A DNA stretch of 51,153 bases from a virus (Duplodnaviria > Heunggongvirae > Uroviricota > Caudoviricetes), in the IMG/VR virus record IMGVR_UViG_637000105_000004, one strand, 5' to 3'. Both the position numbers and the translations under genes were made by a program. A model generated the notes under the pieces. It was not told the DNA's origin, did no database searches, and saw only the letters and a program-made list of their open reading frames with translations. How positions within the stretch are numbered: the first letter of the stretch is position 1; every line of letters starts with the position of its first letter. Shown piece by piece: positions 3,297 through 50,076 of the stretch.

Positions 3297-3530
3297 ATGA
3301 AATCAAAAGACACCCTAAAGTGGTTCCCTGCGCAGCTTCCTGAAGTCAGAATTATCCTGGGAGATGCTGTCGTGGAAGTAGCAAAACAGGGAAGACCTAT
3401 CAATACCAGAACATTGCTTGATTACATTGAAGGAAACATAAAGAAAAAGTCATGGCTGGATAACAAAGAATTATTACAAACAGCGATATCAGTTCTTAAA
3501 GACAACCAAAATTTAAATGGTAAAGTGTAA
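3297..3530 (+). CDS. YdfK/YnaE-family prophage protein (77 aa)
   Basis: Translation from MKSKDTLKWFPAQLPEVRIILGD resembles Qin/Rac YdfK/YnaE from memory; position next to pin matches the Qin layout. Confidence 0.6.
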   Translation: MKSKDTLKWFPAQLPEVRIILGDAVVEVAKQGRPINTRTLLDYIEGNIKKKSWLDNKELLQTAISVLKDNQNLNGKV

Positions 3531-3904
3531 CCCCCCTGAAAAATAATTTTTTAATGCATTAAAAAATATCAACAACTACGTTATCCCTCAACAACCTACT
3601 TTTTTACCATTTTTCCACTTTAACAACATTTTGCTCCACTTTTCCACGACCAAACAACTTGAAATCTGGTTAAAATAACATACAACACTATTATTCGTCT
3701 TCCTCGAGTCCGCCCGGATTTCGAAAAACAAACCGAGTTAAAGCCATTTTTCAAAAAATCGATTTTGGGTTACACCAAAATTACGGGACTGCATCCGAAT
3801 TCGTTTATTTTCGAACGTATACATACAAATATGTACAATAATAAGCGAAATAATTTTTGGATATGCATTATGATATGTACACCAATTTCGTATAGAGTCT
3901 CACT

Positions 3905-4495
3905 ATGTCTCGAATTTTTGCTTACTGTCGGATATCAACTCTGGATCAGACCACCGAAAATCAACGCCGGGAAATCGAAAGTGCAGGTTTTAAAATCAAA
4001 CCTCAGCAAATAATCGAAGAACACATTAGCGGCTCAGCAGCAACCAGTGAGCGTCCTGGTTTTAACCGGTTGCTTGCTCGCCTGAAATGTGGTGATCAAT
4101 TGATTGTGACAAAACTGGATCGCCTTGGTTGTAATGCAATGGATATCAGGAAAACAGTGGAACAACTGACCGAAACAGGTATCAGAGTGCATTGCTTAGC
4201 ATTGGGGGGCATTGACCTGACCAGTCCAACAGGAAAAATGATGATGCAAGTAATTTCAGCAGTCGCTGAATTTGAACGAGACCTTTTACTTGAACGCACT
4301 CATTCCGGGATAGTAAGAGCCCGGGGCGCAGGGAAACGTTTTGGTCGACCACCTGTGTTAAATGAAGAACAGAAACAGGTGGTATTCGAACGAATTAAGT
4401 CAGGTGTAAGTATAAGTGCCATTGCCCGGGAATTCAAAACCTCGCGGCAAACCATTTTAAGAGCCAAAGCAAAACTTCAGACACCTGACATATAA
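3905..4495 (+). CDS. pin: Serine recombinase / DNA invertase (PinQ/PinR-like, 196 aa)
   Basis: N-terminal catalytic motif YCRISTLDQ with Ser, resolvase core, C-terminal HTH; adjacent to tail-fibre genes. Confidence 0.92.
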
Positions 4496-4722
4496 AAAAT
4501 AATCTCGGTGTGAGATGCTTTACGTCTTCCAAGCCCCCTTCCTTGCCGTAAATGGAAAGATACATCTAATTATAGAATTTATATGTTTTACCCTACGGCA
4601 GTGCTGGCCATTCAATATCCTGTGCAGTTGACGTATCAACACGGTTCAGCAACACCCGATACTTTTTCCAGGCTTCCAGCAACGGGGTTTCTTCCTCCGT
4701 TGCATATACAGCTCACCTTTTT

Positions 4723-5031
4723 TCACCCACGATTAACCAACAGCCAGACCAGCAGACACGCCACCACCGGCACAGCAAAATCCATCAGGCTTGCCACATC
4801 CCACACGCGCGGATCAAAACCGCCCCACCACGGCATGTTAATCCTCTTGCCATGCCCAAACATTTCAATCCAGCGATATTCCGCCTGGGTGTGTTCACGC
4901 GCAATGAAGAACGTACAACCGGCTATCGCCCCGTAAGCCCAGTTCCCGGTAAAAAGACCAACCAGTAGCTGCGCAGCCACAGCACAAAGCGCATGAAGGA
5001 AAGGTGTTATATCCATTTTCATCCTACCCAA
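4723..5031 (-). CDS. Small hydrophobic membrane protein (about 98 aa)
   Basis: ORF with predicted TM segments (LHALCAVAAQLLVGLFTG, AVPVVACLLVWLLV); likely start at MKMDITPF. Confidence 0.5.
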   Translation of the reverse strand: MGRMKMDITPFLHALCAVAAQLLVGLFTGNWAYGAIAGCTFFIAREHTQAEYRWIEMFGHGKRINMPWWGGFDPRVWDVASLMDFAVPVVACLLVWLLVNRG

Positions 5032-5058
5032 TAAAACGGGGCGCTCGGCCCCTTGATA

Positions 5059-6099
5059 TTATTTAGACGCAAGCGCCGCCTCAATTGCAGATAATCTTTG
5101 TCTTAATTCTGCGTTTTCTTCTTCCAGTGCTGTTATTCTGTCGTCTGACTCTCTGGCTACCTGAACAAGCAAGCCAGTAACACCAGAATAATCTACTGTG
5201 TAATAACGTTCACCTTCTTCACCTTCCGATCCGCTTGCACCGTCCTGATATTTCATTGCGGAACCTACAACTTCTGGGATTGCTTCCAGAGCTTCCTGTG
5301 CAATGACACCAGCATAGGGCATACCGTTTTCTTTAAGCGTGTATGTATAGCCGTTCATTTTACGGATGCGGTCGGTTGCATTATCGATCACCTGAATGTT
5401 GTCTTTCAGATCCCGGTCGGAATGCTGGTTAAATGCGGTGGCATGACATGCACCATTAACGCTTAACATATAGGTGTTATCGGTATTTTTTTGCGCATAG
5501 AACATATAAGCGCCACCATCAACACCGACTTCATAAACAACAGGACGGCTGGAGTTGCCCCACAATTGAGCAGTAACACCAGCATAAGCGGTTCCCTGTG
5601 TGTTTAATGTCATGGTTGACCCATGATTGGCATATTTGATCTGTAATGTGTCGGTGTAATCAAATTTAATAAGCGCGTTACTTCCACGCTTGCTGTATGA
5701 CATAAGGCAGTTACCCATTTTGAGGTATCCGCTGTCACCGGGAAAAATCATCGTACCGCCATAAAGGTTGGTAAAGTCCCAGCAAATGTTTGTCCCGTTA
5801 TCGTTCAGGTTAAGGCGCGCCATTGCGTTACCTGGACTGTCTATCCATTTTTTGAGGTATAGTTCGCAATACGCATCCTCAACACCTGCCGTCCTGTGAG
5901 TTGAGCGGAGTTTTCTCCCAAATATAGCTCCGCTAGTTGGCAATACCTGCTGATACCATGAAGCAGACCAGTCACCAACGATTTCATCTTTGCTGTCTAC
6001 ATATAATTTTGTTGCGTAGCTTCCTTGATCGTTTTTTAATTTGCTAACGTCGGATTTTAGCGTTTTGATGTCATCAGGAATTACTGTCGATGTAGCCAT
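5059..6099 (-). CDS. Tail fibre / receptor-binding protein with C-terminal intramolecular chaperone (peptidase S74-like) domain, 346 aa
   Basis: C-terminus DLKDNIQVID...YTYTLKENGMPYAGVIAQE...LLVQVARESDDRITALEEENAELRQRL is typical of self-cleaving tail-fibre chaperone domains; start overlaps upstream gene. Confidence 0.7.
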   Translation of the reverse strand: MATSTVIPDDIKTLKSDVSKLKNDQGSYATKLYVDSKDEIVGDWSASWYQQVLPTSGAIFGRKLRSTHRTAGVEDAYCELYLKKWIDSPGNAMARLNLNDNGTNICWDFTNLYGGTMIFPGDSGYLKMGNCLMSYSKRGSNALIKFDYTDTLQIKYANHGSTMTLNTQGTAYAGVTAQLWGNSSRPVVYEVGVDGGAYMFYAQKNTDNTYMLSVNGACHATAFNQHSDRDLKDNIQVIDNATDRIRKMNGYTYTLKENGMPYAGVIAQEALEAIPEVVGSAMKYQDGASGSEGEEGERYYTVDYSGVTGLLVQVARESDDRITALEEENAELRQRLSAIEAALASK

Positions 6100-6108
6100 T
6101 TGTCTCCC

Positions 6109-6390
6109 TCACATCCAGCCACGAAGTTGATGCTCAACAACAATCGCGTATTTATCGAATATTGACGATTTTTTTGCATCATTAATGATGCGCACGTTTA
6201 CAAAATATCCGTCCTCCTTAACACATACCGGTTCGCCATCTTCAGTCAGTTCTCCGGTTTCTTTGTACACGTTACCTATCACGTCAATAAGAATATCACC
6301 CTGCATCGACTCGTCATCATAATAGCCAATACTCTCCATAAAGGCCGAAAAGTCGGCCCTGTCTGCAAATTTGAGCGTTAAATCTTTCAT
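6109..6390 (-). CDS. Hypothetical protein (93 aa) in tail-fibre operon
   Basis: ORF translationally coupled to stf stop (ATGA overlap) and to the downstream fibre gene; acidic; no family recognised. Confidence 0.5.
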   Translation of the reverse strand: MKDLTLKFADRADFSAFMESIGYYDDESMQGDILIDVIGNVYKETGELTEDGEPVCVKEDGYFVNVRIINDAKKSSIFDKYAIVVEHQLRGWM

Positions 6391-8786
6391 TTAATACTCT
6401 CCCCCATTTGCGCATCAGTTAATTCTTTATGCCAGAGACGAAGATTTCTCAAATGGCCGAATAGATGACGAGTTCCCGATGTGGCTTGACCTCCAATTCG
6501 AATAAAGGTCCGTGTTTTTACGCCCGTCCACTCCGTTTTCATGGTTTTAGTAGCCTCACCGTTAGAAACTACTCGTTTAGTACCATCAGAATAAATATTA
6601 AAACCACCAATGAATTTTCGAACATCAGTTCGACCAGCAAACACACTAGAAACGTAAGTACTTGTCGACGCTTTATAAGTTTGCATATAAAGCTGACCGT
6701 AATATTTCTCAGTTGTGTTAAAAGCGTATGTAATTGACTCAATAGGTGGCACACCAGAAAAATCAAAAATACGCGGTGCTACATTAGGAGGAATATCGCC
6801 CCAATTTCTATTAACCTCGACCAGGCACGTAAGCGGTCTATTATAGATATTATTTTCAGTTGGGATCGTCACCATATCACTGGAGCGGGTTGCGGGTACA
6901 GTTGTCGTAATAACAAAAGATGAAGCACATCCGCCGTTTTCAAATTGTGGTGTTGCAAGGTAAATATAATCTCCCGCTTCAGTTACACCACCTTTTTTCG
7001 GCGCATACTGAATCATTGCGCCAATTAAGGTTTCACCTTCAACAGCTTCTATAGTTGCCTCATAGAAAATCCACCCTGTAACCGGATCTTTAGTTGCAGT
7101 AGCTGCTATTCTATTGGCTGCTCCGCCAGTTTTTTCTATTATCAGAGTTCCGAAAGTTAAATAAGCATCTCCTAAAAATGTATAAACCGACCCATCGTAT
7201 TTTTCAAAACGCAAACGACAACGAAGACCATCAGGAGCTTTAACCCTGCATGAAACAGTGCAATACTTATTATCGCCACTAACATCAATCCCCCGGGATG
7301 CACTGCATGTATGCAGACTAAGTGCAGATGATTGTCCTGTCATATTATCTTTTGTTCGCATTTTGGCATATGAAAAACCAAATTCATCAACACCATTATT
7401 AGTTTTATCGATATTGCTGGTACTCGTCCATTCAGCGGGGATATTGGATTTAACAAAATAGTTAGTGCGCTGTCCTTCAATCAATAAACCTTCTTTTTCA
7501 AATCGTGGCTCATCAATTTTAGCAACACTAAATACGCCTGATTTATTGATATATGTGGCAGTTGATGCGCGTTTAAACTTTACAACCTTATCGCCAGGCA
7601 TCGTTATTTCATCATCACCAATAACAATCTTTTTATATGACGGCGAAAAGCCCGTAATCATATCCAGTGAATCGTTAAACGGTATCCACACATCGGGAAG
7701 CGGCTGCAAAACTTGTTTATACGGCTCCGCAGCCTGGCTTGCATACTCTCTGGCTGCGTCTTCACTTGCTTTTGCAGCCGTCTGGCTTGCTGCCGATGCT
7801 TTCGCTGAGTTAGCCGCCGCAGTCTCGCTCGCCTTTGCGTTGGTTTCACTGGTTTTTGCAGCTTTTTGACTGTTGGCTGATGCAGAGGCAGAAGAAGCCG
7901 CCGCACTTGCAGAACCAGCTGCGGCACTCTCGCTTTGGGCTGCTGCATCCTGACTGTTTTTCGCCGCAGTTTCACTGGCTTTGGCATTCGTTTCGCTGGT
8001 CTTCGCTGCCGTCTGGCTGGACTTTGCGTTAGTTTCACTCGTCTTCGCAGCTTTCTGGCTGTTAGCCGCAGCAGTTGCTGATCCAGTTGCTGAAGTCGCA
8101 GAACCGGCTGCCGCGCTCTCGCTTTGGGCTGCTGCAACCTGGCTGTTTTTTGCCGCAGTTTCACTGGCTTTGGCATTCGTTTCGCTGGTCTTCGCTGCCG
8201 TCTGGCTGGACTTTGCGTTGGTTTCGCTCGTCTTTGCGGCTGTCTCGCTATTTTTCGCGTTGGTTTCTGATTTTTTGGCTGCTGTCGCGGAGTTTTCTGA
8301 TGCAGTCTGTGAGGTCGCTGCCGCCTGTGCACTATTAGCTGCATTCGTTTCTGAGGTTTTCGCCGCGTTCTTCGATGATGCCGCTGCAGTTTCGGATTTC
8401 TTTGCCGCCGCTGCGCTCTGAGAGGCGGCTTCGGCGTTGCGTGCCGCTTCTTCCACCATTTCCTCAAAACGACGCAATGCCTCCGGCATGACATCATCTT
8501 CCGTCATGGCACCGAGAAAATCATTCAGCGTACCTGGTCTGGAACCTTCATAGACGGTAATGGTTCCGGCATGTGAAGGCGGAAAACCTTCAACAAGCAG
8601 GATAACGCTGTACTGGCCATACTCAACATCCATGCTGTAACGCCCGGCTTCATCCGGATTTTCAGAGGCCACCGTGTTCACCAGTACCGTGGTGCTGTTA
8701 CGCTTTGCCTTCAGTTGAATAGTGCAGTTCTGTATTGGTTTTCCCGCACCATCTTTCAGCACACCTGAGATTTTTACTGCTGCCAT
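6387..8786 (-). CDS. stf: Side tail fibre protein Stf (about 799 aa) with Ala/Ser/Thr-rich repeats and divergent C-terminal domain
   Basis: N-terminus MAAVKISGVLKDGAGKPIQNCTIQLKA matches lambda Stf from memory; repeated KTSETNAK units in the shaft. Confidence 0.88.
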   Translation of the reverse strand: MAAVKISGVLKDGAGKPIQNCTIQLKAKRNSTTVLVNTVASENPDEAGRYSMDVEYGQYSVILLVEGFPPSHAGTITVYEGSRPGTLNDFLGAMTEDDVMPEALRRFEEMVEEAARNAEAASQSAAAAKKSETAAASSKNAAKTSETNAANSAQAAATSQTASENSATAAKKSETNAKNSETAAKTSETNAKSSQTAAKTSETNAKASETAAKNSQVAAAQSESAAAGSATSATGSATAAANSQKAAKTSETNAKSSQTAAKTSETNAKASETAAKNSQDAAAQSESAAAGSASAAASSASASANSQKAAKTSETNAKASETAAANSAKASAASQTAAKASEDAAREYASQAAEPYKQVLQPLPDVWIPFNDSLDMITGFSPSYKKIVIGDDEITMPGDKVVKFKRASTATYINKSGVFSVAKIDEPRFEKEGLLIEGQRTNYFVKSNIPAEWTSTSNIDKTNNGVDEFGFSYAKMRTKDNMTGQSSALSLHTCSASRGIDVSGDNKYCTVSCRVKAPDGLRCRLRFEKYDGSVYTFLGDAYLTFGTLIIEKTGGAANRIAATATKDPVTGWIFYEATIEAVEGETLIGAMIQYAPKKGGVTEAGDYIYLATPQFENGGCASSFVITTTVPATRSSDMVTIPTENNIYNRPLTCLVEVNRNWGDIPPNVAPRIFDFSGVPPIESITYAFNTTEKYYGQLYMQTYKASTSTYVSSVFAGRTDVRKFIGGFNIYSDGTKRVVSNGEATKTMKTEWTGVKTRTFIRIGGQATSGTRHLFGHLRNLRLWHKELTDAQMGESIK
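7700..8420. repeat. Tandem in-frame coding repeats within stf
   Basis: Reiterated ~24-48 bp units encoding SETNAKxSQTAAKT motifs. Confidence 0.8.
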
Positions 8787-8829
8787 ATCCACTCCACAAT
8801 AAATATCCTCCGGCATAGCCGGAGGTTTT

Positions 8830-9500
8830 TCAAATGCGCCTATAAGGCTCTCTTACCAGCCGCGCCCTAACAGGCGCACACGATCTGACATTTGCATCCA
8901 ACTTCGTTACTTACGGCCCGTAAACGGGCTGCCCGGATAGGGAATCGATAACTGCTCTCCCATTTTATCCTCTTCAAGCTGGTGCTTTATGTAATCCTGT
9001 ATCTTCGCCGTGTTCTTACCCACTGTATCGACGTAGTACCCTCTGCACCAGAACTCCCTGTTCCTGTATTTGAATTTCAAATCACCAAACTGCTCGTAAA
9101 GCATCAGACTGCTTTTCCCTTTCAGATATCCCATAAACCCGGATACGCTCATTTTGGGCGGGATCTCCACAAGCATATGGATATGATCTGCACAGCATTC
9201 AGCTTCCAGAATCCGTACGCTTTTCCACTCACACAGCTTTCTCAAAATACTGCCTATTGCTCTACGCTTCTCTCTGTAGAACACCTGTCTTCGGTATTTT
9301 GGCGCAAAAACTATGTGATATTTACAGTTCCATCGGGTGTGCGCTAAGCTCTTTTCGTTCCCCATTGGGACCCCCTTTTGATTTCTTGTTTGACACTTGC
9401 AGTTGCCAGACCGCAAAGTGTTTTAACAAATCAAAAGGGGTTTTAATAACTGGCTCAAAGCTGAAAGCTTTCCGGAACCCCCAGCCTAGCTGGGGGTTTT
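8830..9500 (-). mobile_element. IS200-like insertion sequence (IS200/IS605 family); boundaries approximate
   Basis: Contains Y1 HUH transposase gene with flanking hairpins; inserted between lom and stf. Confidence 0.75.
8907..9365 (-). CDS. tnpA: IS200 transposase TnpA (152 aa)
   Basis: Translation MGNEKSLAHTRWNCKYHIVFAPKYRR...HIHMLVEIPPK... matches IS200 TnpA from memory. Confidence 0.9.
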   Translation of the reverse strand: MGNEKSLAHTRWNCKYHIVFAPKYRRQVFYREKRRAIGSILRKLCEWKSVRILEAECCADHIHMLVEIPPKMSVSGFMGYLKGKSSLMLYEQFGDLKFKYRNREFWCRGYYVDTVGKNTAKIQDYIKHQLEEDKMGEQLSIPYPGSPFTGRK

Positions 9501-9509
9501 CTGTGCACA

Positions 9510-9536
9510 AAAAAGCCCGCCTGAACCGGCGGGCTG
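9510..9536 (-). terminator. Rho-independent terminator downstream of lom
   Basis: Minus strand gcccgccggttcaggcgggc followed by ttttttgtg. Confidence 0.7.
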
Positions 9537-9561
9537 TCATAACACTGTGTTACCTGGCTAA

Positions 9562-10161
9562 TCAGAATTTATAACCGACACCCACGATGAAACCGTCAGT
9601 GCGCCAGTCACCACTGCCGGAACCTTCATAAGCAAGGTCAATGGCCACGGATTCGGTCGGGTTAAACTGCACGCCAGCCCCCCACGCCAGAGACGTGTTG
9701 CTGTGGCGACCGTCATCACTTCCGGTCAGCACATCGTGCGTTTTCCCCTTGTTGTCAGTTACGCGGAGATAATCCCCGGAGAAGGTCGACACACGGCTGT
9801 AAGCCATACCCGCCATCGCATAAGCACTGAACCATTCATTCACGCGTACAGATGGCCCCGCCATCATGCTGAACCAGCGGTTACGCACGGAATCTTCATG
9901 CCAGCGGGTATCGCTGTAATGCGTTTTTTGCTCATCTTTGGCATTGGCATAACTGAATGACGTCACCAGCCCCAGCGTGTCCGTAAATTCATAACGGTAT
10001 TTCACGTTAATGCCCTTCAGGTCATCACTGCCTGGCATATCAGTATGGGTCTGAAGATACCCGGCGCTTAGTGTGGACTGATGCTCTGCTGCGCTCGCTG
10101 GCGTACCAGCGGCAACCAGCCAGACTACTGCGGACAGAATAACAGCACATAATTTACGCAT
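9562..10161 (-). CDS. lom: Outer membrane protein Lom (Ail/Lom family, 199 aa)
   Basis: Signal peptide plus beta-barrel pattern ending GYKF; lambda Lom-like; located after J as in lambda. Confidence 0.9.
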   Translation of the reverse strand: MRKLCAVILSAVVWLVAAGTPASAAEHQSTLSAGYLQTHTDMPGSDDLKGINVKYRYEFTDTLGLVTSFSYANAKDEQKTHYSDTRWHEDSVRNRWFSMMAGPSVRVNEWFSAYAMAGMAYSRVSTFSGDYLRVTDNKGKTHDVLTGSDDGRHSNTSLAWGAGVQFNPTESVAIDLAYEGSGSGDWRTDGFIVGVGYKF

Positions 10162-10228: not shown

Positions 10229-13200
10229 TCAGCTGATACTGATGCCTGCGGTGGCTTTCTTCATCACCACAACCAGCAAATCGCTGATACTTGCTGTGGG
10301 ATACCAGTTATTTACCAGCCATGCTGACACCGAAAACTCCAGCGTCATGTGACCGTGACCGGCAGGCATATCAATAACGCCACTGTAAATCAGCGTATTA
10401 TCCAGCGCGGTACGGTTATAAATTTCAGCACCGTTTTTCCGCACTATCAGACGGCATGAGGAGTAAATATCAGTATGCTCTCTCTCATGCTTAGCGCCGC
10501 TGAATGCCACCGCCGGAATAACAATCTGTCGGTCAAACGGCTGATCGTCATAAATCCTGACGGTAATGGTCCCTGATGGCCACCGTTCCGGTGCACGGGA
10601 GTCCCGGGGGAAAGCTTTACCCACTGTTTTAACGAGATCGCCTTCAATCTGGTTCGCGGACAGTTTTCCCAGAACCCGGCAGTTCTCGTTAATCGTGACG
10701 TTGTTGAGCGTCCCGGAGTTCGCATTCACGTTACCGCTGATATCGGCATTTTTCGCCGTCAGCCGCCCGTCCGGTGTCAGGGAAAATGCCGGAGGATTAC
10801 CGCCGCTGGTAATGGTGGGAGCCGTCAGATATTTCAGGAACACTTCGTTCATGAATATCTGATCGCCCTGACCAACAAACATCGGCTTTGTGTTGCCATT
10901 CGCAGGATTAACCATCGCAATCCTGTCCGCCGCCAGCAGCACCTGACTCTGCATGCCGTCAGGGGTGTTCTCAATACCGGCACCAATACCCGCGATATAA
11001 AGGCGTCCGTCCTGCATCTGCTGCAGCTTCACAGCCCACATGCTGTTCAGGTTATTATTTGTATCAACCTGAACCTTCTGTATCTGCTGAATTGCCGCAC
11101 TCTGGTCTTCCAGTTTCTTATTGACGGTCTGCGTGATTTCATTGCTGACATCCGTAATGGACGTCCTGATTTCAGCCAGGTCAGGCGCAAGCTGACCGTT
11201 ATCAATCTGCGTCCACAGCTCCTGAGCCAGATGGCTTTTCCCTATCTCGCCTTTGAAAAAATCCAGATAGCCGGATGCATCATCACTCGGCTGGCCAACA
11301 GCCTCCACAAATGCCGATTTGCCAACGGTGTTCACACTGCGGATGTAAAAATAATAATCATGGCCCGGTTTGATATTGATACTGGCAGCTATCCAGTACA
11401 GCGCCGTGCCAAGATAGCGGGCTGTGGTTTCAACCTGCCTGATATCCGCAATCCGCTTTTCCGAGAACCAGAACTCAAACTGTACCGTCGGATCATAAAC
11501 GGCAAGATGGGGCGTGGCGGTTATCTGAAAATAGCCCGGCGTCAGCTCAATCCGCGACGGCGCTGCCGGTGCGGCAATCCGGAACGATACCGATGCAGGA
11601 TCGCCCTGCTGCCCCCAGGCATTTGCCGCCCGGACTGTCAGCCTGTAGCTTCCCAGCGCCAGCTGCCTGAAGCGGTATGTGGTTTCCGTCGTCCGGGCCG
11701 TGCTGACCAGCCGCTCACTGCCGTCATCCGCTGCCACGGTCAGGCGAAGCATAAAGCTCACACCCTTCACCACCTTCGGCGTATCCCAGCGCGCCAGCAC
11801 CTGATATTCCCCGCTGTCTGCAGTGACTTCTGCGGTCAGGTGCTGCACCGCTGGCGGCGTGACACCATTCACCGTGCCACTCTGTTCGCCGTCAAAGTGC
11901 GCCCCGTTATCCACGATGGCCTCTTTTTCCGGCACATGCTGCACGGCGGTGATGGCATACGTGCCGTCGTCGTTCTCACGGATACTCACGCAGCGGAACA
12001 GTCGCTGGCGCAGCGTCGGCAGCTTCAGCCCCCATACGCTGTATTCAGCAACACCGTCAGGAACACGGCTCACTTTTACCTTCACGCCGTCGGTGACGGA
12101 CTGAACCTCCACGCTGACCGGATTGCCACTTCCGTCAACCAGGCTTATCAGCGTGGTACCGGAGGATGGCAGCGTGATTTCACGGTCGAGCGTCAGCGTC
12201 CGGGTCTGGCTGTTCACCGCCAGCACACGACCACTGGTGCTGATACCGGCATAGTCATCATCGCAGATTTCAATGATATCGCCCGGTACATGGCGAAGCC
12301 CTTCAGCACCCACGCTGAAGTCCACGGTCTGCGTTTCCAGCAGTTCCGTTTTAATCAGCCACAGCCCGGCGCGGTGTGCCTGCCCCCGACTGGTACAACC
12401 AAAGGCATCCATCTTCGTGACATTACGACCGTAACGGGCAATGGCCTGCGTATCTTCAACAAGCTCTGTCGCCGTCTCCCAGCCGTTGTCCGGGTCAATC
12501 CAGTTCACCTCAACGGCATTATGGCGGTCCTTCAGGGCGCTGAAGCTGTAGCGGAACGGCGCGCCATCATCCGGCATCACCACATTACTGCGGTTATAGG
12601 TCCACACCTTATCTGATGGTCGGTCCTGCACGAACGTCAGCGTCTGCCCGTTCCATACCGGCATACAGCGCATCGCCGAGCAGAAATCACTGAGCACATC
12701 CCACGCCTTACGCTGCGTGGTCAGCCAGGCATTACAGGTGATGCGCGGCTCCGTGCCGCCAAAACCGTCCGGCACCGACTGGTCGCAATACTGTCCGATG
12801 ACATACAGCGCCCATTTGTCCACATCCGCCGCACCAAGACGTTTCCCCATGCCGTAGCGCGTATGGGTCAGCATATCCCACAGACACCAGGCCATGTTGT
12901 TGCTGTATGCCGGTTTAAACGTTCCGTCCCAGATACCGCTGTATTGCCGCGTCTGCGGGTTATAATTCGACGGCACCTGCAGAATACGCCCGCGAAGATG
13001 ATAATTACGGCTCACCTGCTGACTGCCGAACTGTTCCGAGTCCACCTGCACGCCGACCAGTGCCGTGTTCGGGTAGCACTGTTTCACATCGATGATTTCG
13101 GTGTATGACGACCAGAGCGTTTTGTTCTGCAGCTGGTCTGTGGTGCTGTCCGGCGTCATCCTGCGCATCCGGATATTAAACGGGCGCGGCGGCAGGTTAT

Positions 13201-13708
13201 CCACCACCACCGAGGCCAGATACTGTGAGGTGGTTTTGCCCTTAATGGTGATGTCTTTTTCCGTCACCCAGCCACCATTACGCTGTATCTGAACCAGCAG
13301 GCGAACTTCCGACAGATTCCGGTCCCCCTTTGAGGTGGTTTCCACCAGTGCCTGCACACCGAAGGTAAAGCGCAGACGGTCGATGTTTGCCGACGTGATG
13401 GTCCGGGTAATCGGCGTGTCGTACTTCACTTCCGTACCCAGCACCGTCTCGGAGCCGGAGGATTCAAATCCCTCCGGCGGTGTCTGCTCCTGCTCACCTG
13501 CCCGGAACACCACCGTGACACCGGAGATATTGGTATTCCCCTCACTGTCCAGCACTGGCGTACTGTTCAGCAGCACACTTTTTAATCCGTCCACCGGACC
13601 TTCAACCGGCCCTTCACTGATGGCGTCTATCACGCTCAGCATCTGGGATGATTTCAGGTTGTCCTTCGCTTCGCGCGGGGTATGCCCCTTACTGCTGCCT
13701 TTACCCAT
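10229..13708 (-). CDS. J: Tail tip host specificity protein J (1159 aa)
   Basis: Large ORF in lambda J position; lambda J-like N-terminus. Confidence 0.93.
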
Positions 13709-49036: not shown

Positions 49037-49465
49037 TAAAAACCTTATCTTACAAATAGTTGGTAATGATGTTGAATTATTTTTTGTTCTTTATGGCTAA
49101 TAAGATTACATGAAGGGACAACTTCTGGCCACCTTAGAAAACACTCACTTTAGTAACAAGAGTCAATAATATTGTTGACAAATCACAAAAAAACAAACTT
49201 ATCCAAAACAATCTGGTTTATTACAAAGCCTCTGTGCATAAATCTGTGTATAACATCATTTTTACACACATTTTTATAAAAATATTTTTTAGCAAAAAAT
49301 GCTATCTATCTCCGAAACTGCAACCACAAACCATTAATTCCAAATGAAACTATTTTAAAATAAATAGTAAGACAGTAACAGGACGGAAAAAGTTCCGCAA
49401 AAGAGCCGCGTGTAAAATCAACAATATTTGGCTATTTAAATTCAATGAATTACATAACTATGGAC

Positions 49466-49497
49466 ACGGGTTCAACTCCCGCCAGCTCCACCAATCA
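49466..49497. repeat. attR core: displaced copy of the ssrA 3' end (direct repeat of 1034-1065)
   Basis: 32-bp exact match to the ssrA 3' end, followed by ~150 bp of diverged ssrA-downstream homology. Confidence 0.75.
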
Positions 49498-49620
49498 TGA
49501 TTGGACGGTGTAAGGACTACACCAACAAAAACAGGAAGTTATAAGTCTCAGCAGGACACCGACCAGACGGTGAGGAGACAAAAAAGGATACGCAACGGAG
49601 TCGCGACTCCCTATGACATT

Positions 49621-49649
49621 AAAGCCCGCTGATGCGGGCTTTTTTATTG
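49621..49649 (+). terminator. Terminator-like hairpin homologous to the ssrA terminator
   Basis: aaagcccgctgatgcgggctttttta. Confidence 0.6.
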
Positions 49650-50076
49650 GTCCTGACCCGCCCTGAATAGAATTCATCCAATTACAGTCCAGACATATAC
49701 AGTATCCCTCAGCTCAGTATCAGCTTCTCGACAAATGGTCACTGTTATTTACCCGTTGCCAGAAAGAGAATAATTTGCCCCCATAGCCAGCCTTCCTGGA
49801 ATCTGTATATTCATTAATATTGTTATCGATTCCATCAAGTAACATAGGTTGGATGCGATTGATCTTACTCACATTAGTCGACACGGAACTCAGTAAGTTG
49901 AACTCTGAAAAAGCAGTTTAAATAGCATTTAAACAAATGCCACCAGTTCGAAAAAGAGTATAAGCACACTTAATATATTGTTTTAATTATTCATTTCCTT
50001 TCAACCCAATTCTTATCCCTCACATTATTTGTTATTAATTTGTTGTTTTTGATCACAATAAGAAAACAATATGTAA

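Follow-up and report, generated by a model that had tools for sequence, protein, structure and literature searches.

The subject of this analysis is a side-tail-fibre locus in a 51,153-nucleotide (nt) stretch of viral DNA (IMG/VR record IMGVR_UViG_637000105_000004), referred to below as the window; the Escherichia coli CFT073 chromosome matches window positions 3700-9600 at 100% identity. The locus is read here, with a probability of about four in five, as an alternative side-tail-fibre cassette of lambdoid coliphages that has a fixed orientation and cannot be inverted, located at the end of the late operon of a CFT073 prophage. It comprises four genes on the minus strand: stf (6387-8786), encoding the side tail fibre protein; an open reading frame (ORF) of 93 amino acids (aa) at 6109-6390; a 346-aa ORF at 5059-6099, encoding a short second fibre; and a 97-aa ORF at 4723-5016, encoding a small hydrophobic protein. 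These are followed by the 3' remnant of a tfa gene (4593-4703, minus strand), consisting of the last 36 codons and the stop, and by the gene for a 196-aa serine recombinase, PinQ (3905-4495, plus strand), which ydfK precedes. A first-pass annotation made from the sequence had described the four cassette genes and the recombinase gene, and all of them are found where it placed them. The recombinase gene is intact and on the opposite strand, as described, although it lies outside the interval 4723-8786 that was assigned to the locus.

The cassette is a common fixed variant of the lambda side-tail-fibre locus. Its four proteins are full-length members of the families phrog_1419, phrog_1361, phrog_4563 and phrog_1443, and the stretch 4606-6505, which spans the tfa remnant through the end of stf, is present at 80% coverage or more in 478 of 5426 complete E. 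coli genomes. All four genes occur in the same order in the isolated phages PhiR63_1, Tritos and HannyBb, where the recombinase accompanies them, and in 2G7b, where it does not; a core of three genes is found in the virulent Nonagvirus vB_EcoS_ESCO3 and in other genera. In each of 79 distinct IMG/VR loci, stfN, stfC, the 93-aa gene, the second fibre gene and the membrane protein gene follow one another in an invariant collinear order. The pairwise ratio of non-synonymous to synonymous substitution rates (dN/dS) is below 1 for all four genes, which points to purifying selection. The locus had initially been called unusual, a description that does not survive the full-length PHROG families, the genome counts and the viable phages that carry it. 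Literature searches found no functional study of this cassette.

An intact serine recombinase gene that converges on the fibre genes lies 230 bp from the cassette, which raises the question of whether an invertase controls, or until recently controlled, a host-range switch here, with PinQ inverting a fibre segment. The invertases of Mu (G/Gin), P1 (C/Cin) and e14 (P/PinE) are likewise small serine recombinases that adjoin tail-fibre genes. PinQ, a candidate member of the Hin subfamily, has Resolvase and HTH_7 domains and conserved catalytic residues, but its identity to Gin, PinE and Cin is only 36-39%, and these three resemble one another much more closely; with such divergence, its sites might differ beyond recognition. 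However, a half-site profile built from the authentic sites of Mu (gix), e14 (pix) and P1 (cixL), which scores those sites at 26-29 bits, finds nothing above chance in the whole 51-kb window, where the best 26-mer reaches 11.1 bits and the mean maximum after shuffling is 12.2. The pix 16-mer, the substrate reported for PinQ, has no match with three or fewer mismatches in the window, a simple search for the AAACCNNGGTTT core gives 22 matches against 25.9 expected, and there is no inverted repeat of at least 20 nt around the fibre genes. The first-pass annotation, which could not identify 26-bp crossover sites, was right on this point. Unlike Mu, P1 and e14, the locus also has no second set of fibre-tip or tfa genes in the opposite orientation, the fibre genes all lying on one strand, and the orientation is fixed in all relatives.

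Several weaker candidates were set aside. The best profile match (3747-3772) and a lone half-site at 4430 inside pinQ are at chance level. Inverted repeats of 13-24 nt in 3300-9600 are imperfect and scattered, and the pair that most resembles a site (14 nt, 7366/8824) places one arm in the end of an IS200 element that relatives lack. Two inverted cassette copies on the IMG/VR contig IMGVR_UViG_2724679539_000001 (25,496 bp) looked like a possible invertible arrangement, but the whole contig is palindromic about its midpoint, perfectly so, and the copies are an assembly artefact. The sequence at 3747-3772, scoring 11.1 bits, is an AT-rich dyad (TTTTTCAAAAAATCGATTTTGGGTTA) that precedes the pinQ start by 133 bp, within a block that pinQ-carrying phages conserve; it may be a relic or a site of regulation.

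The affiliations of PinQ also lie elsewhere. It is identical to PinQ of the K-12 Qin prophage at 194 of 196 positions, and ydfK-pinQ-(tfa) is a standard Qin/Rac-type block that flanks ordinary stf-tfa loci as well. Among 30 related loci with enough flanking sequence, only 4 have pinQ next to the cassette and 26 lack it, and the earlier hint that the invertase belongs to the locus is thus not borne out. According to a 2025 study, PinQ acts in trans to invert the P segment of another prophage, e14, where it uses pix sites, and no inversions were found in Qin or Rac (PMC12529663). Since there is no site, there are no flanking repeats, all 79 loci are collinear and pinQ accompanies only 4 of 30, the locus appears not to be invertible, and PinQ is best seen as an orphan neighbour with no crossover site in this prophage. 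A current or recent switch working through divergent sites can hardly be entertained on this evidence. The first-pass annotation had left invertibility unclear; the orientation is fixed, inverted repeats are missing, and the recombinase, though intact, has its reported substrate in another prophage. If active, PinQ may, by analogy with that substrate, act in trans on Pin/Gin-type segments elsewhere.

The N-terminal part of Stf (7734-8786, minus strand) is lambda-like and consists of a tail-docking domain and a shaft of Ala/Ser/Thr-rich repeats. PF08400 covers aa 13-142 (E 6e-67), a 94-residue chain named 'Tail fiber protein' (PDB 9e7m) matches at E 1.6e-49, and lambda orf-401 aligns with aa 3-273 at 61% identity. 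The shaft contains KTSETNA-type repeats, with units of 21/42 nt, and positions 7815-8294 hold a 189-bp duplication. Stf has no similarity to orf-314, which forms the tip in lambda. The initial description of a lambda N-terminus with KTSETNAK repeats and a divergent distal part therefore stands. In comparison with the Stf/Tfa system of lambda (Ur-lambda), the gene occupies the same place after J and lom, and shares the PF08400 domain, the first 110 aa being about 88% identical, as well as the Ala/Ser/Thr shaft. However, the distal half is lectin-like and unrelated to orf-314, tfa is reduced to 36 codons, and three extra genes follow.

From about aa 361 on, Stf consists of an exchangeable module with a hypervariable core, predicted to be a tandem beta-sandwich of the concanavalin A (ConA)/laminin G (LamG) lectin-like type. 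The C-terminal module (6387-7733, minus strand, about 448 aa) was modelled as an AlphaFold2 (AF2) monomer from an alignment of 45 diverse members. The model is all-beta and confident, with a predicted local distance difference test (pLDDT) score of 91.5 and a predicted template modelling score (pTM) of 0.89. Its best Foldseek matches are proteins of Pa193 and E217, followed by tandem laminin-G and neurexin domains, and its jelly-roll beta-sandwich superposes on carbohydrate-binding modules and lectins of the ConA-like/LamG kind. At the sequence level, the 809-aa ORF has a match over aa 445-645 to the NCBIfam family NF048003, the 'GTA head spike fiber' domain (E 2.4e-14), and Pfam Laminin_G_3 gives a match below threshold over the last 60 aa. 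Stf thus shares a family match with this head-spike domain of gene transfer agents (GTAs) and a fold with ConA-like carbohydrate-binding modules and lectins, but here the domain tips a siphovirus side tail fibre. An exhaustive profile-free search (E <= 0.001) recovers 1705 cluster representatives that share the C-terminal 440 or so aa, and among the full-length matches listed, the module forms the C-terminal end of proteins of about 440 to nearly 1500 aa.

Compared with Tritos and 2G7b, the identity of Stf is at least 90% up to about aa 440, falls to 15-65% over aa 441-760, and is high again at the end. A hypervariable core (nt 6505-7459, aa ~441-760) between conserved ends is the pattern expected of a receptor-binding determinant. 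Sequence similarity between the fibre of Nonagvirus vB_EcoS_ESCO3 and the Stf of CFT073 starts only at about aa 361, which marks the exchange point of the module. We infer that the tip is a glycan-binding adhesin folding chain by chain, and folding of this kind would explain how a Tfa-type chaperone became dispensable.

The 93-aa gene (phrog_1361) is coupled to stf, as the first-pass annotation had it: its start overlaps the stf stop as ATGA, and it has its own GGGGAGAG ribosome-binding site. The product is acidic (isoelectric point 4.4). It directly adjoins a lectin-type stf in 74 of 74 informative IMG/VR loci. In other species and genera, a homologue of 92-100 aa follows the lectin module with overlapping start and stop in 10 of 11 loci, which come from Escherichia ruysiae, Silvania, Buttiauxella, Atlantibacter and Leclercia and in which the lectin module is 26-50% identical. 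Because the homologue is also present where a second fibre is not nearby, the 93-aa protein seems to be tied to the lectin module and not to the second fibre. The most economical reading is that it serves as the dedicated assembly partner of the tip, functionally in Tfa's place; alternatively, it could act as an adaptor.

The pair of lectin module and coupled 93-aa homologue also turns up in prophage loci of Buttiauxella (4710-6400) and Atlantibacter (4704-6502), between genes resembling Mu gp43 and gp44. These Mu-like flanks encode a DNA-circulation protein (gp43-type) and a baseplate-hub protein (GpP/gp44-type), with no second fibre nearby. The pair thus serves myovirus baseplate modules too.

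The 346-aa protein ends in an intramolecular chaperone domain of the kind found in tail fibres, as was first noted. Peptidase_S74 (PF13884) matches aa 227-278 with E 4.8e-14 and 52.8 bits, the cut-off being 22. The chaperone runs from S227/D228 (nt 5059-5421), and the S-D-R-D-L-K motif at its start (S227-K232) is nearly invariant among 27 homologues. The N-terminal peptide that homologues share, M-[AV]-T-x-T-[VN]-I-P-x-D-I, leads into coiled-coil repeats whose number varies. In the CFT073 protein, the conserved peptide and coiled coil occupy aa 1-30, and a variable beta-rich region (aa 31-120), only 30-50% identical between otherwise close relatives, leads to a conserved distal part and then to the S74 domain. 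Pfam and PHROG searches find neither PF08400 nor any other recognisable tail-docking domain in this protein. Two allelic types exist, the 346-aa type in 36 of 49 IMG/VR loci and a type of about 234 aa in the other 13; the latter likewise has a coiled-coil N-terminus and an S74 domain, and the N-terminal peptide is common to both. The motif and PF13884 are shared with the S74 fibres and spikes K1F endosialidase, T5 pb1 and S16 gp37, the last of which (PDB 6f45) gives a weak sequence match. The second fibre differs from these in that its mature part is very short (about 227 aa), with no recognisable enzymatic or known knob domain, and its cleavage is predicted only.

It might be argued that this ORF, and perhaps the 93-aa ORF as well, is a non-functional leftover of a longer, displaced fibre gene and that only Stf works. 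There are precedents for a longer protein: phrog_6578, a 1210-aa fibre family, joins an Stf-like N-terminus to the C-terminal 210 aa of the 346-aa protein, many homologues of its distal half are 450-600 aa long, and the mosaic junctions and the tfa remnant attest to past recombination. However, the ORF is retained at full length along its match to phrog_4563, with its own GGGAGA ribosome-binding site and an N-terminal peptide that the 346-aa and 234-aa types share. Its pairwise dN/dS is 0.05-0.42, and the gene occurs in plaque-forming phages, including the virulent Nonagvirus. Other genera repeat the order of lectin fibre, 93-aa gene and short S74 fibre, at identities of 26-30%; Silvania and Atlantibacter have an S74 protein of 319-358 aa encoded directly behind the 93-aa homologue. 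Full-length conservation, dN/dS below 1 and recurrence in Silvania and Atlantibacter together indicate that the second fibre is a real, selected gene and not debris, and the leftover explanation is quite improbable.

By recombination, the cassette took the place of a lambda-type tip and its Tfa, leaving 36 tfa codons. Stf retains the docking domain and repeat shaft of lambda, with the lectin module swapped in from about aa 361. In the mechanism proposed for the cassette, this tip would bind a surface glycan and need no Tfa. The 93-aa protein would be the partner or adaptor of the tip. The second fibre would trimerise on its S74 chaperone, cleave at about S227/D228 and dock through its conserved N-terminal peptide, to give a branched side fibre with two specificities. 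A precedent for such an arrangement exists in the T5-like phages DT57C and DT571/2, in which the second fibre, LtfB, has no tail-docking domain and is thought to be attached via the first, LtfA, to provide two receptor specificities (PMC4728585, PMC10713586). By this analogy, attachment of the second fibre through Stf is plausible. Both systems have two consecutive fibre genes, the second with no docking domain, but here the first fibre ends in a lectin module, the 93-aa protein intervenes and the attachment is purely conjectural; the likeness noted is one of arrangement. Going further, it is possible, if somewhat doubtful, that the 93-aa protein represents an unrecognised class of tail-fibre partner, either a Tfa-independent chaperone for a widespread family of lectin-tipped fibres (about 1700 cluster representatives) or an adaptor that docks the short S74 fibre to such a tip, and, as a separate matter, that the CFT073 PinQ acts in trans on the fibre segments of other prophages, as PinQ of K-12 is reported to do.

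There is no full tfa gene, as the first-pass annotation stated, but it overlooked the last 36 codons, which survive at 4593-4703. Their product is identical to aa 156-191 of TfaQ at 34 of 36 positions, and the Prokaryotic Genome Annotation Pipeline (PGAP) treats them as a pseudogene. Homology to canonical tfa-pin phages stops at 4704, and homology to the 2G7b cassette begins at 4606. The ydfK-pinQ-tfa 3' end is common to phages 2H10 and mEp460_ev081 and to Qin, all elements with an ordinary stf-tfa pair, at 96-98% DNA identity up to 4704. Since this shared homology ends inside the tfa remnant, the cassette recombined in upstream of a pre-existing tfa-pinQ junction, and the remnant marks the downstream recombination junction. 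The K-12 Qin/Rac arrangement (stfQ-tfaQ-pinQ-ydfK) and the loci of 2H10 and mEp460_ev081 thus share ydfK, pinQ (99%) and the tfa 3' end with the present locus, but in them pinQ comes after a full-length tfa and an stf whose tip depends on Tfa, whereas here the cassette replaces both.

The last gene of the cassette encodes 97 aa from its ATG, or 102 aa from an upstream TTG. The protein has hydrophobic stretches at about aa 3-25 and 71-97, and its hydropathy agrees with its first designation as a small membrane protein. It matches phrog_1443 at E 1e-58, and the dN/dS of its gene is 0.12-0.20. A terminator-like hairpin (5038-5052) separates the gene from that of the second fibre, and it has its own ribosome-binding site. 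The gene is absent from Nonagvirus ESCO3 and from the loci of other genera, and is regarded as an accessory gene that travels with the lambdoid form of the cassette. It is also found (window 4647-5025) in many E. coli genomes at 90-95% identity with no adjacent fibre genes, and one such copy adjoins a gene annotated as 'nucleocapsid protein'. Sequence comparison suggests that it may move independently as a small accessory gene.

Upstream of stf, the CFT073 locus has been altered by an insertion. IS200C (8804-9505, minus strand; tnpA 8907-9416) has inserted 17 bp ahead of the stf ATG and separates that gene from the lom terminator. The IS200C transposase belongs to Y1_Tnp (PF01797, E 5e-38) and is labelled IS200C by PGAP, and related phages lack exactly these 702 bp. 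The correct stf start is the ATG at 8786, the end coordinate that was originally given. The ORF extends to an ATG at 8816, but this spurious start sits in the terminal hairpin of IS200C and adds 10 codons, which gives the 809-aa ORF. RefSeq/PGAP annotates the uninterrupted stf ORF of CFT073 as three separate pieces: a pseudo fragment of the N-terminus, a 'hypothetical protein' of 110 aa that is out of frame, and a 'head spike fiber domain' protein of 425 aa. The 110-aa piece falls in the repeat region, where the repeats yield long ORFs in several frames, and the three-way split looks like an annotation artefact and not a disrupted gene.

IS200C is not part of the cassette, but it may affect cassette expression or the read-through of the late operon into the fibre genes. 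In the extreme case, the cassette would be transcriptionally dead in CFT073, a relic decaying in this strain after IS200C uncoupled stf from the late operon. The hairpins at both ends of the element, the lom terminator directly upstream and the treatment of stf as fragmented by PGAP are all consistent with such a loss. However, the four cassette ORFs are intact and identical, or nearly so, to those of viable phages, the stf ribosome-binding site persists next to IS200C, and the other parts of the prophage are complete. Late transcription in lambdoid phages is also subject to antitermination, which counts against a dead cassette. A transcriptionally silent relic thus seems unlikely.

Some observations weigh against the interpretation of the locus as a fixed, functional alternative fibre cassette. 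Sequence searches of Pfam, NCBIfam, PADLOC and the PDB give nothing informative for either the 93-aa or the 97-aa protein, the best PDB matches (E >= 0.05) being treated as chance. The physical link of the 93-aa protein or of the second fibre to Stf is putative. For the 346-aa protein, AF2 gives a poor monomer model (pLDDT 62.7), and a Foldseek search of the PDB with it returned nothing at E < 0.01; no structural conclusion was drawn from this model. The profiled crossover sites belong to invertases to which PinQ is only 36-39% identical, and a divergent PinQ site could in principle escape the profile, although the one reported substrate of PinQ is pix. Finally, IS200C, so close to the stf start, might silence the cassette in CFT073.

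The host element appears from its gene content to be a complete lambda-like prophage at ssrA, with the fibre cassette at the distal end of the late operon. The smpB gene (1-483) lies upstream of the prophage, and the transfer-messenger RNA (tmRNA) gene ssrA (698-1060) directly before it. A direct repeat of the ssrA 3' end and the sequence downstream of it, at 1029-1218 and 49462-49650, delimits the prophage, which is about 48.4 kb long. The repeat includes some 160 bp downstream of ssrA, with the terminator, at 87-89% identity, and is far longer than a typical att core. The cassette is preceded by J (10229-13708) and lom (9562-10161), both on the minus strand. According to the RefSeq annotation, the other 37 kb or so encode terminase, portal, protease, decoration and capsid proteins and tail proteins through J, as well as lysis genes, a Q-like antiterminator, replication genes, cI/cro and an integrase.

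At the ssrA-proximal end, just inside the prophage, is an abortive-infection gene of the AbiTii family (1229-2149; PF18864 and PADLOC PDLC02334, both with E of about 1e-33). It is followed by a DinI-like gene, which PGAP calls frameshifted, and then by ynfT/ydfK and pinQ. This arm of the prophage constitutes a small accessory and defence region.

For annotation, the present locus illustrates that an invertase beside tail-fibre genes does not imply a host-range switch, and a false lead is thereby removed; the absence of tfa is accounted for by a different tip architecture. About 9% of complete E. coli genomes carry the cassette, which also occurs in temperate as well as virulent phages and in several genera and is a common natural substitute for the Stf tip of lambda. 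For phage biology and engineering, it has well-marked points of exchange, one at Stf aa ~361 and one at the 3' end of tfa, and two of its regions are hypervariable. Were the 93-aa protein to prove both necessary and sufficient for tip assembly, it would help in the construction of chimeric Stf particles for delivery vectors. The current understanding of such fibres is not challenged, and the remaining interest lies in the 93-aa partner and the possible branched architecture. Should the adaptor role be true, branched side fibres of dual specificity would be present in many lambdoid phages.

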